DNA of 64,000 nucleotides from an uncultured Bacteroidota bacterium (GTDB taxonomy: Bacteria > Bacteroidota > Bacteroidia > Chitinophagales > Chitinophagaceae). Each line of letters starts with the position of its first letter. The stretch's first letter is position 1. Below are positions 3,751-17,095 of this stretch, piece after piece. A program made the position numbers and the translations under genes. The stretch covers positions 48,728 to 112,727 of the forward strand of contig CAISPO010000001.1 of NCBI GenBank assembly GCA_903887415.1. The letters are read 5' to 3'. Below the pieces are notes generated by a model. That model did no database searches and was not told the DNA's origin. It saw only the letters and a list, made by a program, of their open reading frames with translations.

Positions 3751-4818
3751 TTAAAAGTATAAATTATTTTCTAAAAAAGAAACAAGTGTCTTGGGAAAAG
3801 CGGTTTTTTTTAAGTCGTTAGTAGTCAGCCACATACCATTTAGGCTATTGATAGTTATCTTTTTTACCAGATTTATACTGAAAAAACTCGAATTTATAAG
3901 CTGATGAGTGAGCCGCTGAGTAACCCTGCCTTCATATATTATTTGGCTATACGCAATATTCAGATTTTTAAATTCAGGATTACCGGACAAAGTATTCGCA
4001 GTGAGCGGTTCTGTAGTTTCTATGAGGTAGGGTTCGTGGAGGTTTTCCCAAATGTCATTATCAGTGCGTTTGTGTATCCATATCTTCCCTTCCCACTTTA
4101 ATAACAGGTAGTTGAAATAACGGTTGCGCACAGTTTGCTTTTTACTGCGAACAGGCAGCATATCTACCAACCCACGGTGGTAGGCAACACATTTTTTTTG
4201 CAGCGGGCATTGATCGCAAAGTGGGTTGCGCGGTGTGCAGACGGTGGCCCCGAGGTCCATAATAGCCTGGTTGTAAGGAGCGCTGTTCTTTTTATCCAGG
4301 AGCTCGTGTGCCAATGCAGCAAAGGCCTTTTTCCCCTCGGTAATGTCGAAAGGCGTTTCTATTCCAAAGTAACGTGCCAGCACCCTATAGACATTGCCAT
4401 CCACCACGGCATGAGGCAGCCCGAAGGCGAATGAGGCTATTGCGGCGGCTGTATATGGGCCAATGCCTTTCAGCTCAATAAGCCCTTCATAAGTATCGGG
4501 AAATCGCCCATTGAGGTTATGACTGATGTGACGGGCGGTTGCCAGCATATTTTTACATCGGTTGTAATACCCAAGTCCCTGCCATAGCCGGAATGCCTGC
4601 TCATCGGCAGACGCCGCCATGTCTTTTATAGTAGGGTAGGCTGCTGTAAATGCAAGGTAGTAGGGTAGGCCCTGCAGCGCCCGTGTTTGCTGCAATATCA
4701 CTTCTGATAGCCATATTTTATAAGGATCTTTTTCGCTTTTCCACGGCAGGCTGCGTTGGTTTTCGGTATCATGCCAGGCTGTTAGCTGCGCGGTAAAATA
4801 TTTCTTATTAGCGTCCAT
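3751..4818 (-). CDS. mutY: A/G-specific adenine glycosylase
   Basis: PYKIWLSEVILQQT, WQGLGYY, HhH LKGIGPYTA, VDGNV, FeS cluster CTPRNPLCDQCPLQKKC; ATG at 4818 is the likely start. Confidence 0.95.
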   Translation of the reverse strand: MDANKKYFTAQLTAWHDTENQRSLPWKSEKDPYKIWLSEVILQQTRALQGLPYYLAFTAAYPTIKDMAASADEQAFRLWQGLGYYNRCKNMLATARHISHNLNGRFPDTYEGLIELKGIGPYTAAAIASFAFGLPHAVVDGNVYRVLARYFGIETPFDITEGKKAFAALAHELLDKKNSAPYNQAIMDLGATVCTPRNPLCDQCPLQKKCVAYHRGLVDMLPVRSKKQTVRNRYFNYLLLKWEGKIWIHKRTDNDIWENLHEPYLIETTEPLTANTLSGNPEFKNLNIAYSQIIYEGRVTQRLTHQLINSSFFSINLVKKITINSLNGMWLTTNDLKKTAFPKTLVSFLENNLYF

Positions 4819-4874
4819 TTGTTGTTGCAAATTAAACAACCCATAGCTGTTGTAACTACAGATTTTTGGGCGAT

Positions 4875-5702
4875 TTAAAATAAAGACATCTGCGCCGTTC
4901 CGGCAGGCGAATAATAAACTTCAGCTTCCACACTGCCGGTGGGCATATGGTAAACGGGTGTTTCTTTGTAACGCGATGCGATCACAATATCGGTATCATC
5001 GGCGTGCTCCGCAAATAACTCCAGCGCAATGTGTGGCGAGTTATTGTCCTTAGAAAGATGTGAAAGATAGAGCAGGCTGAGCCCGGGGGGCTTATGTTTT
5101 ATGAATAGTTCCAGTGCCTGCCTGTTCGATAAATGGCCCTTGTCACCGCTTATGCGCCTTTTAAGGTGAGTGGGATAACGGCCATTTTCAAGCATATCCT
5201 CATCATAATTTGCCTCTAAGAAAGCGATCTGACATTGGCTGAAATTATTGACTACGTGACTGCAGGCGCTGCCAATGTCTGTAAACACACCAACATTTAT
5301 GCCATTGTAGCTTATCAAAAAGCTGTGCGGGTCAATGGCATCATGCAGTTTTGGAAACGCAAGAACGGACATATCGCCTATGTTCACCGGAGTGTAAGCA
5401 GCGAAACTATTTACCAGATCCGTGCTGATGCGAAGCCTGCTGTGGGCAAGGGTTGCCGCAGTAATAAACAAGGGCAGTCTATGCTTGTTAGCCAGCGTTT
5501 CAGCACCGTTGATATGGTCGCCATGCTCATGGGATATGAAGATCGCTTTTACCTTGTTTATATCCAGGCCCAGCCGTTTCATTCTTTTTTCTGTCTCCCT
5601 GCAGGATATGCCCGCATCTATCAGCACAGCATCCGTATCATTACCTATGTAATAACAGTTGCCGTTACTGCCAGAATTGAGCGATGCAATGAAAAGAGAC
5701 AT
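4875..5702 (-). CDS. MBL-fold metallo-hydrolase (YycJ/WalJ-like)
   Basis: SGSNGN, IDAG, SHEHGDH metal motif, HDAIDP, TDIG, LEANYD, GHLSN; C-terminal QMSLF. Confidence 0.9.
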   Translation of the reverse strand: MSLFIASLNSGSNGNCYYIGNDTDAVLIDAGISCRETEKRMKRLGLDINKVKAIFISHEHGDHINGAETLANKHRLPLFITAATLAHSRLRISTDLVNSFAAYTPVNIGDMSVLAFPKLHDAIDPHSFLISYNGINVGVFTDIGSACSHVVNNFSQCQIAFLEANYDEDMLENGRYPTHLKRRISGDKGHLSNRQALELFIKHKPPGLSLLYLSHLSKDNNSPHIALELFAEHADDTDIVIASRYKETPVYHMPTGSVEAEVYYSPAGTAQMSLF

Positions 5703-7172: not shown

Positions 7173-7934
7173 ATGTACCCACTTATACAAGAGATAATCA
7201 AGGACCCGCTAGCTACTTTACTGATCATCGGTAACCTTGTACTTATAGAAAGCCTGCTTTCGGTGGATAATGCCGCTGTTCTGGCCACTATGGTTATGGA
7301 TCTTTCTCCGCGCGACAGGAAACGTGCTTTAAAGTATGGGATATTTGGTGCATATTTTTTCAGGGGCGCTTGCCTGGTATTTGCTTCGTTCCTGATCAAG
7401 GTTTGGTGGCTGAAAGCTGTGGGCGGCCTCTACCTTTTATTCCTGGTATGGAAGTGGCTCAGAAGTAAACTGCAGAAAAAAGGGCAGGAGCAGCACGTAA
7501 GCAAGGAAAGAAGCCGGTTATATCAATTAACCGTTGGCAGGCTCGGTATCTTTTGGGCTACTGTTGTTTCCGTAGAGCTGATGGACCTTGCTTTTTCCAT
7601 GGACAATGTATTTGCTGCCGTTGCCTTTTCCAGCAATATACTCATCATCCTTTGCGGTGTATTTATAGGCATACTTGCTATGCGTTTTGTAGCGCAGGGG
7701 TTCGTGAAATTGATGGAACACTATCCGTTCCTCGAGGCTTGCGCATATGCTGTCATCGGTATTCTTGGCATCAAGCTGTCATTATCGCTTTATCAGCACT
7801 TTTATCCGATTTCGCCGCTTAGTGGTGTATTAAACAGCCCTCACATGGATTGGGGTACATCGGCGCTTACGATCTGTATTTTTTTTATACCCGTTATTAC
7901 AAGCCTTTTATTTAATTTCCCTAAGAGAAAGTAA
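7173..7934 (+). CDS. TerC/Alx (YkoY-like) membrane protein
   Basis: ESLLSVDNAAV, DLAFSMDNVFAAVA and GVFIGILAMR motifs. Confidence 0.92.
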   Translation: MYPLIQEIIKDPLATLLIIGNLVLIESLLSVDNAAVLATMVMDLSPRDRKRALKYGIFGAYFFRGACLVFASFLIKVWWLKAVGGLYLLFLVWKWLRSKLQKKGQEQHVSKERSRLYQLTVGRLGIFWATVVSVELMDLAFSMDNVFAAVAFSSNILIILCGVFIGILAMRFVAQGFVKLMEHYPFLEACAYAVIGILGIKLSLSLYQHFYPISPLSGVLNSPHMDWGTSALTICIFFIPVITSLLFNFPKRK

Positions 7935-9940: not shown

Positions 9941-10051
9941 CTTCTTTGAAGTGGATATCTTAGCCCACAGGAGCACCCCTTTTCAGCCGAATTGTGCGTC
10001 GGAGAAGGTGGCTATGGATATTAAAACACTACTCGTAGCCCACACAAGAAG
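9941..10051. ncRNA. Candidate structured RNA / long multi-stem element of unknown type
   Basis: Nested complementary segments: cttctt/aagaag, gtgg/ccac, atatc/gatat, tagc/gcta, cacc/ggtg, ccga/tcgg. Confidence 0.35.
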
Positions 10052-10066
10052 CCAACTGAAATAACA

Positions 10067-10354
10067 TTAACGTCCTCCTGACAGCGGAAAATCCCGCTCC
10101 AGGAAATGGTGCAGGCTGGCTCTCCAGTGTGCTCTTCTCTGGCGTTCCTCCGCTCTTTCCTCTTCAGTGCGGCCATGGGCGTTATTGGCATGAACATGAT
10201 GGTGATGATGATGGTGCGCTGCTACAGGGTCGCCGCCTGACAACGGAAAGTCAACATTCAGTTCATCAATAGCGTCTTCTAACCTTTCAAATACGTGTGA
10301 TATCCAGGAGGAATGGTGGGCATGTTCTACATCATGGGAGGTTATATTTTCCAT
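10067..10354 (-). CDS. His-rich small hypothetical protein with duplicated DFPLSGG motif
   Basis: 95 aa, ATG start with A/T-rich leader, 17 His, two DFPLSGG copies encoded with synonymous differences, which suggests protein-level selection. Confidence 0.8.
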   Translation of the reverse strand: MENITSHDVEHAHHSSWISHVFERLEDAIDELNVDFPLSGGDPVAAHHHHHHHVHANNAHGRTEEERAEERQRRAHWRASLHHFLERDFPLSGGR

Positions 10355-10440
10355 AAATCAGTGTTTAACAAGTACATAAAGGTACAATATGTTTGAATAA
10401 CTATAAAAAAACTACCCATCATTATGAATTCCTTAGCAGA

Positions 10441-11922
10441 TCATCGCCTGTTTAGCTGCCATTTACTTATGCTTACATTCGCCAGATGCGCTGTGGTATC
10501 TTGCTTTTTATCTTTGCCCCAGGCCACAGTTGCGAGTATGGCTGCAACCTGCTCGGCACCCTCATCATACTGTAGCAGGTATTCAGGTTTAAAGTGCTTT
10601 TCAATGAATTTTGTATCAAACTTGCCTGTTCTGAATGGCTCGGTCTGCACGGCCCATTTTCCAAATTCAAGCGTGGTTTTTATTCCTTTTATGTAATACT
10701 CATCAATAGCCCGGCAGAGGCGGTCTATCGCTTCATCGCGGGTGGCGGCATAAGCCACCAGCTTAGCTATCATAGAGTCGTAAAATATAGGGATGTCCAT
10801 GCCTTCTTCATAGCCGTCGTCCACCCGCACTCCCGGGCCCTTTGGCGGCTGATATATCTCCAGCCTTCCGGTATCCGGCAGAAAGTTGTTCATCGGGTCT
10901 TCAGTGCATACGCGCAGCTCTATTGCATGGCCGGATATTTTCAGCTCGTCTTGTGTAAATGATAGTTTATTCCCCCTCGCCACATTTATCTGTTCTTTCA
11001 CCAGGTCTATACCCGTTATCATTTCCGTCACGCAATGCTCCACCTGCAGGCGGGTATTCATTTCCAGGAAGTAAAAATTAAGGTTTTCATCCACAAGGAA
11101 CTCCACCGTTCCTGCGCCATAATAGTTGCACGACCTCGCCGCAGCAACTGCACACTCGCCCATTGCCTTGCGTATATCCGGCGTCAGGCAGCTCGATGGT
11201 GCTTCTTCTATCAGTTTCTGGTGCCTGCGCTGTATGCTACATTCGCGCTCAAAAAGATATACATAGTTACCGTGCTGATCGCCCATTAATTGTATCTCTA
11301 TATGGCGGGGTGAGCCCACATACTTTTCTATAAAAACATCATCATTGCTGAACGCGCCCAATGCTTCCCGTTTAGCAGTAAGCACCTGTTCTTCAAACTC
11401 TTCGTCATTATTCACCACACGCATGCCTTTGCCGCCACCGCCTGCCGAGGCTTTTACCAGGATAGGGTAACCTATTTTATTGGCGATCTTGCGGGCCTCG
11501 TTCATATCGCTCACCGGCTCCTCGGTGCCAGGTACCATGGGTACGTTAAACTTCTTTGCAGCCTGCTTGGCGCCTATCTTGCTGCCCATGATCTCTATCG
11601 AGTGTGCCGATGGGCCAATGAATATCAGTCCCGCATCGCTTACCGCCTTTGAAAAAGAAGCATTCTCACTAAGGAAACCATAACCCGGATGTATTGCGTC
11701 AGCACCAGTTTTTTTAGCAGCTTCTATAATTTTCTCTGCGCGGAGATACGACTGTGAAGAGAGTGCCGGGCCTATACAAACCGCCTCATCGGCATAGCGC
11801 ACAAACGGCATATGCCTGTCTGCCTCTGAAAATACTGCTACAGTCTTTATACCCATTTCCCTTGCCGTGCGCATCACCCGCATAGCTATTTCGCCACGAT
11901 TGGCGATAAGAATTTTTTGCAT
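10441..11922 (-). CDS. accC: Acetyl/propionyl-CoA carboxylase biotin carboxylase subunit
   Basis: KILIANRGEIA, HPGYGFLSEN, GGGGKGMR, RECSIQRRHQK, EMNTRLQVEH. Confidence 0.93.
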   Translation of the reverse strand: MQKILIANRGEIAMRVMRTAREMGIKTVAVFSEADRHMPFVRYADEAVCIGPALSSQSYLRAEKIIEAAKKTGADAIHPGYGFLSENASFSKAVSDAGLIFIGPSAHSIEIMGSKIGAKQAAKKFNVPMVPGTEEPVSDMNEARKIANKIGYPILVKASAGGGGKGMRVVNNDEEFEEQVLTAKREALGAFSNDDVFIEKYVGSPRHIEIQLMGDQHGNYVYLFERECSIQRRHQKLIEEAPSSCLTPDIRKAMGECAVAAARSCNYYGAGTVEFLVDENLNFYFLEMNTRLQVEHCVTEMITGIDLVKEQINVARGNKLSFTQDELKISGHAIELRVCTEDPMNNFLPDTGRLEIYQPPKGPGVRVDDGYEEGMDIPIFYDSMIAKLVAYAATRDEAIDRLCRAIDEYYIKGIKTTLEFGKWAVQTEPFRTGKFDTKFIEKHFKPEYLLQYDEGAEQVAAILATVAWGKDKKQDTTAHLANVSISKWQLNRR

Positions 11923-12107: not shown

Positions 12108-12521
12108 ATGAAACGTAACGCAACCGCCGTGTGGAACGGCACAGGAAAAGAAGGCAATGGTAACCTTACCACGCAAAGCACAACACTCAACAAGACACAA
12201 TATTCCTACAAGAGCCGTTTTGAAGAAGGCGTAGGCACTAATCCCGAAGAGCTGATAGCGGCAGCACACGCTGGTTGCTATACTATGAAATTATCTTTCG
12301 TGCTGGGAAGTAAAAACTTCATCCCGGAGCAGATCGAAACCAAGTGCGATATAACTCTTGATAACGGTGTTATTACTAAGAGCGAATTGTATGTGACTGG
12401 CAAAGTAACAGGAATCTCCGCTGAAGACTTTAAGAAAGCCGCTGAAGAAGCGCACGAAGGCTGCCTCGTTGGCAAGGCCCTAAATTGCGAAAAAACGCTC
12501 GTTTCTGTAACATTAGGATAA
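12108..12521 (+). CDS. osmC: OsmC family peroxiredoxin
   Basis: SRFEEGVGTNPEELIAAAHAGCY, second Cys in GCLVGKAL. Confidence 0.93.
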   Translation: MKRNATAVWNGTGKEGNGNLTTQSTTLNKTQYSYKSRFEEGVGTNPEELIAAAHAGCYTMKLSFVLGSKNFIPEQIETKCDITLDNGVITKSELYVTGKVTGISAEDFKKAAEEAHEGCLVGKALNCEKTLVSVTLG

Positions 12522-13791: not shown

Positions 13792-15318
13792 GTGTCGTTG
13801 AAGCATAAAAACGACATATTTCAGAACTCAAGTAAGGCTATTAATGGGTCTTTTGTCATGTTTCTGGACATGAACAGTTATTTTGCCAGTTGCGAGCAGC
13901 AGCGGCATCCGGAGCTGCGGGGCAAGCCTTTGGGGGTGCTTACTTACGATAGTCCTAACGCCGCAGTGATCGCTGCATCTAAAGAAGCCAAAATATTTGG
14001 AATTAAGAGCGGCATGCGGCTGGGCGATTGCCGGGCGCTGTGCCCCCAGCTCATCACTACCACAACGCACCCGGCCTGGTACCGGCAGATACATGTGGAT
14101 GTAATGGCCATCCTACGCAGCTACTGTGACGATGTAATACCGAAGAGCATAGACGAGGCGGTAGCCAATTTCAACTCTTACCGGTTGGTGTATGATGATC
14201 TGACGGAAGTGGCCAGTCAGATAAAGGCAGACATAACCGCAAAATATGACTACCTCACTTGCTCCATAGGCATAGCGCCAAATTCTTTCCTGGCCAAGCT
14301 GGGCACAGGGCTGCAGAAAATAGATGGCCTCATCGTGATAACCCCTGAAAATATAGATGGCTACCTGGCTACCCTGAAGCTCACCGACCTGCCGGGTATA
14401 GCCACCAACAATGAGCGCCGCCTGAAAATGATTGGCATCAATAACCCTTTGCAGATGCGGCATTCCTCACCCGCATTGCTGCGCAAGGCGTTTGGCGGGG
14501 TGGTGGGCGACTACTGGCACCGCAGGCTGAATTTTGCCGAGGTAGATATGTATAGCCGTGCAGAGAACCGCACCATGAGCGCCACGCGTACCCTTAGCCG
14601 CCAGCAGAGCCAGAATAGGCAAGTGCTGGAGTCTATGCTCATATCACTGTGCACAAGGCTGGAGCAGCGCATGGTAAAGAGCGAAATGTTTTGCAGGGAG
14701 GTATCTTTCTCCATCAGGTATAAAGATGGTACAAGCTGGGATACGACAGTGAAGCTGGCAGAACCGGTGCAGGATGCTATGGAGCTGATCAGCTATATAA
14801 AGGAGCGGATAGCTGATTATGAGCGCTCACATCATTTGCAGGCCCTGTTCAATGAGCGCGTTACAAATCTTACCGTGGCTATTGCCTCCTTTATGAATGG
14901 CAGGGTGATGCAATACAGCCTGTTTGATAATCGCATGAAAAAAGATACGGTGCGCAAAGTGATGTATGACATAAAGGAGGTGTATGAACAAAATAATATA
15001 GTAAGAAAGGGCTGTGAGCTGATCATCCCGAATGTAATGAAAGATGCCGTAGGCTTCGGCTCTGTAAAAGATATGATAGTGAAGAAAAACGGCGAAGTAA
15101 AAAACAGGCACCTGCTGGAAGAAGACAAACCCGGCCAGCGCAGGATGGCGGCGCTGAAGAAGAAGCCGGTGGTGGAGCAAAAAGAACCCGACTACAACGA
15201 CATTCTCCCAAATGATGAATGGGAAGGAGTGTCATTATTGCAAGGGTTACAACAGCAGAAAAGCAAAGCTGCTCTGGTAGCTAAAGATGAGTATTATTCA
15301 CAAAGCACTCCCCTTTAG
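13792..15318 (+). CDS. dinB: Y-family DNA polymerase (DinB/Pol IV-like); true start may be ATG at 13858
   Basis: FLDMNSYFASCE, SKEAKIFGIKSGM, SIDEA catalytic motif, SIGIAPNSFLAKL, LTDLPGI. Confidence 0.9.
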   Translation: MSLKHKNDIFQNSSKAINGSFVMFLDMNSYFASCEQQRHPELRGKPLGVLTYDSPNAAVIAASKEAKIFGIKSGMRLGDCRALCPQLITTTTHPAWYRQIHVDVMAILRSYCDDVIPKSIDEAVANFNSYRLVYDDLTEVASQIKADITAKYDYLTCSIGIAPNSFLAKLGTGLQKIDGLIVITPENIDGYLATLKLTDLPGIATNNERRLKMIGINNPLQMRHSSPALLRKAFGGVVGDYWHRRLNFAEVDMYSRAENRTMSATRTLSRQQSQNRQVLESMLISLCTRLEQRMVKSEMFCREVSFSIRYKDGTSWDTTVKLAEPVQDAMELISYIKERIADYERSHHLQALFNERVTNLTVAIASFMNGRVMQYSLFDNRMKKDTVRKVMYDIKEVYEQNNIVRKGCELIIPNVMKDAVGFGSVKDMIVKKNGEVKNRHLLEEDKPGQRRMAALKKKPVVEQKEPDYNDILPNDEWEGVSLLQGLQQQKSKAALVAKDEYYSQSTPL

Positions 15319-15339
15319 GGGCAGGGGGTAAACTAACAT

Positions 15340-16413
15340 ATGATCAACCAACTAGCAAACGACAGATTTGAAAAGGGCAGGGGTGCACAGTACAACCCGA
15401 AGAATAAATTTCTGAAGGGGGAGTATGTACAGGAGCATGTGGAGGGCATAGACGACTGGGAGCAGGAAGCGCGTAAGACGGAATATATCATAGATGACAG
15501 CAAGACGCTGGTAAACACCGTTACCAGCCCGGATGTAGGCATGATGTACTCCGCTAATCCTTACCAGGGTTGTGAGCACGGCTGCATTTATTGTTATGCA
15601 CGAAACAGCCATGAGTACTGGGGCTACAGCGCCGGGGTGGACTTTGAGAGTCGCATAGTGGTGAAGAAAAATGCACCCGCCCTGCTGCGCAAGTATTTTG
15701 ATAATAAGAACTGGGTGCCTGCTACGATATCGCTAAGCGGCAATACAGACTGCTACCAGCCTATAGAGCGCAAAATGCGAATAACGCGCCAACTGCTGGA
15801 GATATGCCTCGACTACCGCAACCCCGTGGGCATACTCACCAAGAATGCGCTGGTGCTCCGCGACCTGGACATAATACAGGAGCTGAACAAGCTGAACCTG
15901 GTGCGGGTGATGAGCTCTATAACCTCGCTGGATGAAGACCTGCGCAAGGTGATGGAGCCGCGGACTGCCTCCTACCGGAGCAGGTTGAAGGTGGTGGAAA
16001 CACTCAGTAAGGCGGGCGTACCCACAGGCATTATGAATGCGCCATTGATACCAGGGCTCAATGATATGCACATGCATGATGTGCTGAAAGCCGCCAGTGA
16101 AGCAGGCGCTAAATGGGCGGGCTACACAGTGGTGCGGCTGAATGGCGCTATAGGGGGCATATTCAAAGACTGGCTCTGGAAGGCCTTCCCTGACCGTGCC
16201 GAAAAAGTGTGGCACCAGATAAGCGAGTGCCACGAAGGCCATGTGAATGACAGCCGCTGGGGCAACCGCATGGTGGGCGACGGCAAATTTGCCGAGCTGA
16301 TAAAAACACAGTTCCAGATATACTGCAAAAAATACCACCTCAACGAAACCGAAAGAACGCTAAACACAAAGGAATTCAGAAGGCCGGTGGCGGGGCAGGG
16401 TAGGTTGTTTTAG
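15340..16413 (+). CDS. PA0069 family radical SAM protein (spore photoproduct lyase-like)
   Basis: NPYQGCEHGCIYCYAR CxxxCxxC motif, SGNTDCYQP, MEPRTAS, APLIPGLND. Confidence 0.92.
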   Translation: MINQLANDRFEKGRGAQYNPKNKFLKGEYVQEHVEGIDDWEQEARKTEYIIDDSKTLVNTVTSPDVGMMYSANPYQGCEHGCIYCYARNSHEYWGYSAGVDFESRIVVKKNAPALLRKYFDNKNWVPATISLSGNTDCYQPIERKMRITRQLLEICLDYRNPVGILTKNALVLRDLDIIQELNKLNLVRVMSSITSLDEDLRKVMEPRTASYRSRLKVVETLSKAGVPTGIMNAPLIPGLNDMHMHDVLKAASEAGAKWAGYTVVRLNGAIGGIFKDWLWKAFPDRAEKVWHQISECHEGHVNDSRWGNRMVGDGKFAELIKTQFQIYCKKYHLNETERTLNTKEFRRPVAGQGRLF

Positions 16414-16488
16414 TCCCGATAGCCATCGGGATGGAACCTGTCTGCCGATAGGCAGGTTGGGAATTTGGATTGTGGAATTTGGATTGAT
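16413..16488. repeat. REP cluster: cccgat-atcggga palindrome, cctgtctgccgataggcagg palindrome and heptamer repeats
   Basis: tcccgatagccatcggga; aacctgtctgccgataggcaggtt; gggaatttggattgtggaatttggattg. Confidence 0.65.
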
Positions 16489-16516
16489 AACCCTTAAATT
16501 TGCGTAAACAGATTTC

Positions 16517-17095
16517 ATGAAATTTGCCGACCTTGATCTAAATAAAACATATACCTATGCCGATTACTTCAAATGGAAGTTTGAGGAGCGCGTAGAACTG
16601 ATAAAGGGGCGCATCTTTAAAATGGCGCCTGCACCCAGCAGTAATCATCAGGGGCTATCGGGCGATATTCATGGCCAATTATGGAACTTTTTAAGAGGGA
16701 AAAAATGTAAAGTGTTTTCTGCACCTTTTGATGTCAGACTGCCCCGAAAATCTAAGGATGACAAAGATATTATTACGGTTGTGCAGCCGGATATTTGTGT
16801 GATTTGTGATCTTAACAAGATTGATGCGAAGGGATGTATCGGAGCACCTGATATTGTTGTTGAGATTTTGTCGCCAGGAAATAACAGCAAAGAACTCAAA
16901 AACAAGTATGAAGTTTACGAAGAAGCCGGAGTGAGGGAATACTGGGTAGTATCGCCGCAAGACAACACTTTTGTTGTTTATACGCTGGTAAATGGTAAGT
17001 ACGAGCCATCAAGGCTTATGGTAGCTGGCGATGTTATCACTTCATCTGTGCTGGATGGGTTCTCACTTGACCTTACAGAGTTATTTGGCGAGTGA
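16517..17095 (+). CDS. Uma2 family endonuclease (DUF820)
   Basis: VELIKG...MAPAP, APFDVRL, VQPDICVICD, GAPDIVVEILSPG, YEEAGVREYW. Confidence 0.93.
   Translation: MKFADLDLNKTYTYADYFKWKFEERVELIKGRIFKMAPAPSSNHQGLSGDIHGQLWNFLRGKKCKVFSAPFDVRLPRKSKDDKDIITVVQPDICVICDLNKIDAKGCIGAPDIVVEILSPGNNSKELKNKYEVYEEAGVREYWVVSPQDNTFVVYTLVNGKYEPSRLMVAGDVITSSVLDGFSLDLTELFGE

Follow-up and report, generated by a model that had tools for sequence, protein, structure and literature searches.

The gene examined here, which encodes the protein P0001, is an open reading frame on the minus strand of a 64-kb stretch of DNA (the whole stretch analysed, hereafter the window). It lies 86 nt downstream of accC, on the same strand, and its product is MENITSHDVEHAHHSSWISHVFERLEDAIDELNVDFPLSGGDPVAAHHHHHHHVHANNAHGRTEEERAEERQRRAHWRASLHHFLERDFPLSGGR. 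On the far side of accC is a divergent gene for an OsmC-family peroxiredoxin, after which comes a tandem-Usp gene. The features of the locus are the following.

10067–10354, minus strand: gene for P0001, a His-rich protein of 95 residues with twin FPLSGG motifs (open reading frame list, translation, orthologues and dN/dS).
10304–10324, minus strand: N-terminal His cluster and Trp (H11-A-H-H-S-S-W17), the opening of module 1 (family conservation).
10262–10318, minus strand: amphipathic helix 1, predicted, residues 13–31 (AlphaFold, DSSP helix H13–31).
10232–10252, minus strand: first copy of DFPLSGG, residues 35–41 (translation and degenerate DNA pattern).
10190–10216, minus strand: His tract of the linker, H47–H53, followed by V54 and H55 (translation).
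10100–10165, minus strand: charged helix 2, predicted, residues 64–85, with W77 and H82-H83 of module 2 (AlphaFold, pLDDT 74–83).
10073–10093, minus strand: second copy of DFPLSGG, residues 88–94, one residue before the C terminus (translation and degenerate DNA pattern).
10377–10384, minus strand: Bacteroidetes-type −7 box TACCTTTA, a putative promoter 22 nt before the ATG (consensus TAnnTTTG).
10441–11922, minus strand: accC, encoding a biotin carboxylase of 493 residues (TIGR00514, 650.7 bits against a cut-off of 626.5).
12108–12521, plus strand: gene for the OsmC-family peroxiredoxin, divergent from accC (TIGR03562, E = 4e-48).

Seventeen of the 95 residues of P0001 are His (17.9%; H7, 11, 13, 14, 20, 47–53, 55, 60, 76, 82 and 83) and none is Cys. 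Residues 47–53 form an uninterrupted His7 run, and a Trp-bearing, helix-forming stretch precedes each copy of the motif (W17..., W77...). The length of the protein, its 17 His residues, the His7 run and the duplicated DFPLSGG are thus all present as the initial annotation described them. When FPLSGG is searched for as a degenerate DNA pattern, the 64 kb contain two matches, both in this gene (0.01 expected from shuffles). The codons of the two copies in the window gene are GAC TTT CCG TTG TCA GGC GGC and GAT TTT CCG CTG TCA GGA GGA, and between orthologues the motif codons likewise differ synonymously while the peptide is unchanged. In a comparison of orthologues (n = 3), dN is 0.14–0.21 and dS is saturated. 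Low dN with saturated dS, together with the synonymous changes in the motif codons, establishes 10067–10354 as a genuine gene under purifying selection, and so upholds the earlier suggestion that selection acts on the peptide. Three further open reading frames overlap it (10021–10197, minus; 10106–10240 and 10129–10272, plus); we take them to be by-products of the open reading frame scan, since the pattern of selection matches the 95-residue frame. The sequencing runs that hold the window sequence are lake-water metagenome DNA, with no RNA-seq run among them.

The first search returned five close relatives (67–71% identity), all unnamed and all from metagenome-assembled genomes of uncultured Bacteroidetes. 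Profile searches extended the family to 30 clusters at E < 1e-3 among 1.84 billion representatives and to 221 clusters in a set of 5.8 billion sequences, the family size of at least 221 clusters being a lower bound. Members are 62–150 residues long, with shorter single-module copies of 48–51 residues in phages. Those that carry a name are called hypothetical, except for one JGI label, 'ferritin-like protein' (P0019), to which the Pfam, NCBIfam and PDB results give no backing. One member belongs to a Flavipsychrobacter genome (Chitinophagaceae), and the range of the family is freshwater and soil Bacteroidota, which is phylogenetically narrow. Scans of P0001 against Pfam, NCBIfam and PHROGs returned noise only (for NCBIfam at E ≤ 10, a sole GvpU match), and 30 members scanned with Pfam and NCBIfam fared no better. 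Matches from a profile search of the PDB were at chance level (E ~1), Foldseek with the low-confidence model found no match, and a full-text literature search for DFPLSGG, FPLSGGE and FPLSGG found no paper. The family is therefore undescribed, with no described family, structure or paper corresponding to it, as the initial annotation had supposed. Twin helix-FPLSGG modules with His flanks are an architecture unlike every family tested against, and we regard them as defining a categorically new protein family.

The unit of conservation is the module, and 120 of the 127 members collected have two, with one module in five members and three in two. Its consensus is H-[HK]-[ST]-W-φ-x-x-φ-φ-[ED]-[KR]-φ-[QE]-[DN]-φ-[DN]-[TV]-[DE]-F-P-L-S-G-G-[ED]. 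The motif is indeed conserved in homologues, as had been anticipated: FPLSGG is essentially invariant over approximately 250 instances from the 127 proteins. In the first module (127 members) no substitution occurs at F, P, L, S or the first G, and 95% retain the second G; in the last module (122 instances) the same holds for P, L, S and the first G, with both F and the second G at 98%. Beyond the motif, identity drops to 25–30% family-wide. At the opening of the module, the Trp-bearing members (n = 108) have His at W−3 in 79% and Ser or Thr at W−1 in 94%; His at W−2 stands at 42%, and at positions 2–11 past the second Gly of the motif His reaches 17–35%. The distance from the Trp of module 1 to the Phe of FPLSGG is 15, 19, 12 or 23 residues in almost all members. 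These distances are whole helical turns, so that the Trp, the Ile/Leu stripe and the Phe share one face of the helix. Module 2 is often shortened to S-F-x-x-D-L-D-T-E-FPLSGGE. The linker between the modules is His7-rich in the subfamily of the window protein and Asp/Glu-rich elsewhere; the length of the His tract varies between close orthologues, and the tract is not conserved in distant members. As it is conserved only near the window protein, and as the His content of the family ranges from 1 to 21% (median 7.9%; 15–20%, near the top, in the window subfamily), the His7 tract is a subfamily trait, and the FPLSGG module is the core of the family.

The residue after GG is Glu in about 80% of instances; Gln accounts for about 3% of all instances and for 7% of those in the last module. 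The last GG lies 0–5 residues from the C terminus in 93 of the 127 members; 17 end in GG plus one residue and three in GG exactly, and the exact ends of the closest relatives are GGQ, GGE, GGR or GG. An amphipathic helix followed by GG is also the arrangement at the GG site of class II bacteriocin and RiPP double-glycine leaders, and the initial annotation had suggested that LSGG might be such a site and the His7 segment a released core peptide. P0001 would then be a leader-bearing precursor that releases its His-rich middle segment, and the hypervariability of the region between the motifs agrees with this. However, a C39-ABC transporter, a peptidase or a modifying enzyme is absent from about 35 contexts; Peptidase_C39 and ABC_tran do not figure in the Pfam lists, which cover about 14 of them, nor do these lists place radical SAM, YcaO or LanM beside the gene. 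None of the annotated neighbours in the window is a modifying enzyme or peptidase either, a point that had been made correctly at the outset. LSGGQ/E and a strict GxxGxGK[ST] P-loop are absent from the stop-to-stop open reading frame segments of at least 80 residues in the window. NCBIfam, which is expected to include models of bacteriocin double-glycine, NHLP, Nif11 and Bacteroidetes GG-motif leaders, gave no leader-family match for P0001 (E ≤ 10) or for 30 members (E ≤ 0.1). Unlike the known leaders, the family has no PCAT and no Cys-containing core (Cys being absent altogether from the window protein), and its second GG stands at the extreme C terminus, so that the putative core would itself hold a second conserved leader-like helix. 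With the second GG so placed in most members, and with His7 specific to one subfamily, release of a His-rich core is very improbable, and that part of the initial annotation is not supported.

Three kinds of mimicry were also considered and set aside. Mimicry of the ABC signature (LSGGQ) disagrees with the residue after GG, which is mostly Glu and seldom Gln. SSB tails need a free C-terminal carboxylate, and mimicry of such a tail (DDDIPF) was dismissed for a motif that is internal or trailed by SGG, where that carboxylate is absent. As to an N-terminal mimic of BCCP (AccB), hhalign against Escherichia coli AccB gave a probability of 0.07%, which speaks against homology, and P0001 contains no MKM, the motif around the biotinyl lysine (AMKM).

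A second reading of the GG ends is that the protein serves as a carrier or modifier, either through a covalent modification of the invariant Ser or as a polyprotein of two Pup- or ubiquitin-like units, cut after GG(E/Q) and ligated to targets. The proteins are small, acidic and disordered and present a helix, then GG, then Glu, Gln or Asp, as Pup does; the resemblance to Pup runs from a helix-forming segment (IDDVLEENAEDF versus IEDAIDELNVDF) through DF to a C-terminal GGQ or GGE, and is superficial. The exact ends of the closest relatives, the invariance of the Ser and the short C-terminal extras on the repeat units, as in polyubiquitin, would also be in keeping with a tag. Homology to Pup was nevertheless rejected, with an hhalign probability of 0.36%, and PF05639 matches no member, whereas a control Pup sequence is matched at 3e-22. 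No PafA/Dop-like, E1-like or phosphopantetheinyl-type enzyme was found in any context, and the family contexts hold no ligase or proteasome genes; the 442-residue gene downstream in the window, considered as a PafA-like ligase, encodes a saccharopine dehydrogenase. The family differs from Pup also in its internal second copy of the motif and in that most members extend 2–5 residues past GG, only 20 of 127 ending at GG or at GG plus one residue. We consider a carrier or modifier role very unlikely. A particular form of it, in which the helix-FPLSGG(E/Q) unit is a protein tag made from a two-unit precursor, attached by an unrecognised ligase and subverted by phages with single-unit decoys, seems to us very unlikely as well.

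Family medians are pI 4.7, 25% Asp plus Glu and GRAVY −1.18, and the family is essentially without Cys. AlphaFold models of the window protein (64 sequences; pLDDT 62.8, pTM 0.27) and of a long member (49 sequences; pLDDT 55.6, pTM 0.21) both contain one helix ahead of each motif and no tertiary fold, and the protein is predicted to be mostly disordered. The hydrophobic moment of helix 1 (W17–F36) is 0.50, a value equalled by 18 of 2,000 shuffles.

Such a chain could also protect against stress in the manner of a hydrophilin or dehydrin: abundant and disordered, it would fold its amphipathic segments on membranes or client proteins, and its His residues would quench metal-catalysed radicals. 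Hydrophilins are defined by more than 6% Gly and a hydrophilicity index above 1; the family medians (6.45% Gly, with the GRAVY given above) lie within these limits, and the window protein falls narrowly under the first (5.3% Gly; GRAVY −1.06). The predicted disorder, the presence of OsmC and Usp among the neighbours, and promoter-like and A-rich start signals, which suggest high expression, point the same way. The repeated conserved segments, moreover, resemble the His-flanked K-segments of KS-type dehydrins (PMC3617826, PMC4215689), which share with the family its disorder and high hydrophilicity; in one of these, Arabidopsis AtHIRD11, His residues bind Cu/Zn and lower radical formation (PMC3617826). 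However, dehydrins are plant proteins with Lys-rich K-segments, whereas the helices of the present family are acidic and end in FPLSGG, whose absolute invariance over six residues is stricter than that of K-segments. No Pfam match to Dehydrin, LEA or KGG was obtained (none to PF00257 for P0001 at E ≤ 10 or for 30 members at E ≤ 1), and the single-module phage copies are hard to explain by protection. A protectant role is, in our judgement, unlikely.

The position of the gene next to accC, pointed out in the initial annotation, is not peculiar to the window. In about 25 of 33 informative contexts (non-redundant, with enough upstream DNA), accC lies upstream on the same strand, directly so except in two contexts where another gene, or about 1 kb, intervenes. 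It is retained where the remaining neighbours differ (L007, L008 and L010, for example), and in L008 the wider neighbourhood differs as well. The OsmC gene adjoins accC in most loci. Downstream there is no fixed neighbour: GNAT, an RND pump and unknown genes occur there and, in the window, saccharopine dehydrogenase. The accC genes of the carrier genomes are 78–95% identical to each other; since these genomes are fairly close, the linkage may be inherited synteny. Eight contexts are without accC, namely L009, L014, L018, L029, L033 (a phage), L043 and two records without DNA. In L009, acetyl-CoA synthetase is encoded upstream, with a gene for 135 residues between it and the family gene. In L014 (1–755), a biotin carboxylase domain of the pyruvate carboxylase kind, with 45% identity to the window AccC, is encoded divergently from the family member, its N terminus about 200 nt away; this is another type of association with a biotin-dependent carboxylase, but one seen only once. 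In L029 and L043, the convergent downstream gene is one that, from reading the sequence, we take to be formimidoyltransferase-cyclodeaminase-like. L043 also carries (1–516) what we read as a cation-diffusion-facilitator transporter with a very His-rich N terminus (MHSHDHGHNEGQSHDHNHEHDHKH...), about 4 kb from its accC-unlinked family member; this is again a single case and probably coincidental.

The box upstream of the window gene recurs: of the family genes inspected on their upstream side, nearly all have TAnnTTTG or a near variant 20–30 nt ahead of the ATG. By its likeness to Bacteroidetes promoters it is a putative promoter element. Many members, in addition, have an A-rich start region and an N terminus of the form MANENE... 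To judge from these signals, expression is independent and probably strong; the family gene carries a promoter-like box of its own, and there is no obvious sign of co-transcription with accC. Inspection of the family upstream regions by eye revealed this box only, with no evident conserved palindrome of the kind that a metal regulator uses as an operator. An Rfam and tRNA search of the whole window returned no RNA family, riboswitch or tRNA. Elsewhere in the window, a gene at 7173–7934 encodes a TerC/YkoY-family membrane protein of the 'riboswitch-switched' subfamily (TIGR03716), for which Rfam found no yybP-ykoY riboswitch, and within 13858–17095 a Pol IV-like DNA polymerase of the Y family, which has a long extension at its C terminus, is encoded ahead of a radical SAM protein (15340–16413) and a Uma2-family nuclease (16517–17095), all three on one strand.

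Four loci carry tandem family paralogues, as arrays of two or three genes downstream of accC (L016, L023, L041 and L046, the last at 4249–5285). The third gene of L046 belongs to a sister family (P0036, P0129–P0141) that has the same HHxSW helix, with [DG]EF[PS][VA][LI]GNGHIN.VHDHHH in place of DFPLSGG; further sister-family members lie on contigs equal in length to those of FPLSGG genes. Single modules occur in phage-like contigs, as homologues of 51 and 48 residues (...GIDTDFPLSGGDEPALH[NS]H). The 51-residue copy (L033, 4959–5114, which is the same as L044, 3413–3568) sits between dUTPase and dCMP deaminase/thymidylate synthase; the 48-residue copy is at L042, 2–148, and one single-module phage-like copy is also present in IMG/VR. 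The GGDEPALH tail of the phage copies matches one host subfamily (P0008, L012 and L013), which suggests that the phage copies are an N-terminal module captured from a host.

The His residues raise the question of metal. According to one explanation, P0001 is a cytoplasmic buffer, store or chaperone for divalent Zn, Ni, Co or Cu. Clusters of His ahead of the helices and behind the FPLSGG turns would coordinate metal together with Asp and Glu, and helix and turn would bring the chain back on itself so that two His clusters meet. The 17.9% His and the His7 run of the window protein, the family medians for His and for Asp plus Glu, the positional conservation of His before the Trp (W−3 and W−2) and past the motif, and the replacement of the motif in the sister family by a His-rich sequence all accord with this, and the His7 tract, judged from the run itself, is very likely to bind Zn, Ni, Co or Cu in vitro. 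Metal binding, however, leaves the invariance of the motif unexplained, as F, P, L, S and G are not ligands; nor does it explain the phage copies or members with only one or two His residues (P0025, P0027). Genes for metal transport, metalloregulation or the maturation of metalloenzymes do not recur consistently among the neighbours, and the upstream regions have, as noted, no evident operator-like palindrome. The initial annotation had proposed an Hpn-like store. Hpn and Hpn-like, the nickel-binding proteins of Helicobacter, are likewise small, cytoplasmic and endowed with poly-His runs, and as a loose analogy the comparison stands. It does not extend to sequence: Hpn is about 47% His with Cys pairs, whereas Cys is absent here and many members are His-poor, the FPLSGG module is absent from Hpn, and a BLASTP comparison with Hpn gave E = 17 and nothing alignable. 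We regard a metal buffer as conceivable but rather unlikely.

The most economical reading of DFPLSGG, and one that the initial annotation had raised, is that of a short linear docking motif. Six invariant residues that are not ligands, in a fast-evolving, disordered, acidic chain, suggest that a conserved pocket recognises a short linear motif, and so do the near-universal duplication of the module and the capture of single modules by phages. That these residues do not bind metal fits recognition by such a pocket, and single-module phage copies among genes of nucleotide metabolism are what would be expected of a module that binds a host target alone. Supporting observations are the two-module architecture of 120 of the 127 members, the Trp-to-Phe spacing in whole helical turns, the recurrence of accC upstream, the significant amphipathicity of helix 1, the AlphaFold models without a tertiary fold and, in one member (L014), a position beside a pyruvate-carboxylase-like biotin carboxylase domain.

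We therefore offer a tentative model. It builds on what the analysis shows, namely the gene and its family, the invariant and duplicated motif, the predicted disorder, the promoter-like box, the linkage to accC and the phage copies; that the protein binds a partner, which partner this would be and whether metal plays a part are what we infer. P0001 would be a cytoplasmic, acidic, largely disordered protein made of two docking modules, each with an H-H-S/T-W start, an amphipathic helix and an invariant cap D-x-D/E-F-P-L-S-G-G-E/D. Each module would act as a short linear motif, folding as it docks in a pocket on some conserved partner in the cell, and the presence of two would make binding bivalent, either across both sites of a dimer or between two partners. 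AccC is a homodimer. The AccC encoded just upstream is the leading candidate for the partner because it is the only recurrent neighbour, because it is homodimeric and because there is a precedent in RfaA/YqhY; the family protein would then act as a regulator or adaptor of a biotin-dependent carboxylase, as RfaA/YqhY does in Bacillus subtilis, without kinship to it. The variable linker would adjust spacing or affinity, either by binding a divalent metal or by titrating with pH.

In B. subtilis, the gene that follows accC encodes RfaA (YqhY), a small protein that binds AccC and, as an adaptor to ClpE, hands it over to the protease ClpEP (bioRxiv 10.1101/2024.02.19.580884; PMC5437119). The likeness lies in the position of the gene, directly downstream of accC both there and in the window and about 25 of the 33 contexts. 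The proteins themselves differ: RfaA/YqhY is a folded domain of the Asp23 family, whereas here we find a disordered twin-motif protein whose gene has its own promoter-like box, and neither P0001 nor any of 30 members gave an Asp23/DUF322 match in Pfam.

Several observations stand against docking. The length of the helix between Trp and Phe varies, so that the Trp and FPL cannot both touch fixed points on a rigid partner, and the conserved His positions are left unexplained by docking alone. With regard to AccC, the gene has its own promoter-like box, eight contexts are without accC, and the linkage may be synteny. The promoter-like and A-rich start signals and the tandem paralogues would suit a bulk protein made in quantity no less than a regulator. 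On balance, we propose bivalent docking, or service as an adaptor, as a possible role and not a probable one, with AccC the foremost candidate for the partner and with a His/acidic linker that would bind metal; a metal buffer and a hydrophilin-like protectant are its serious rivals.

What the family means for its hosts depends on which reading is true. A metal buffer or stress protectant would be a lineage-specific and probably abundant component of the metal or stress physiology of freshwater and soil Chitinophagaceae-like bacteria, and a poly-tag would amount to a protein-tagging system in Bacteroidota. Should the modules dock on AccC or on a different conserved enzyme, no regulator or adaptor of a biotin-dependent carboxylase would have been described in Bacteroidota before this one. 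Docking would also make the family a clear case, in bacteria, of a protein that works through two short linear motifs, the single-module phage versions being natural competitors. A six-residue motif that is invariant over at least 221 unnamed clusters offers a sharp and cheap experimental handle.
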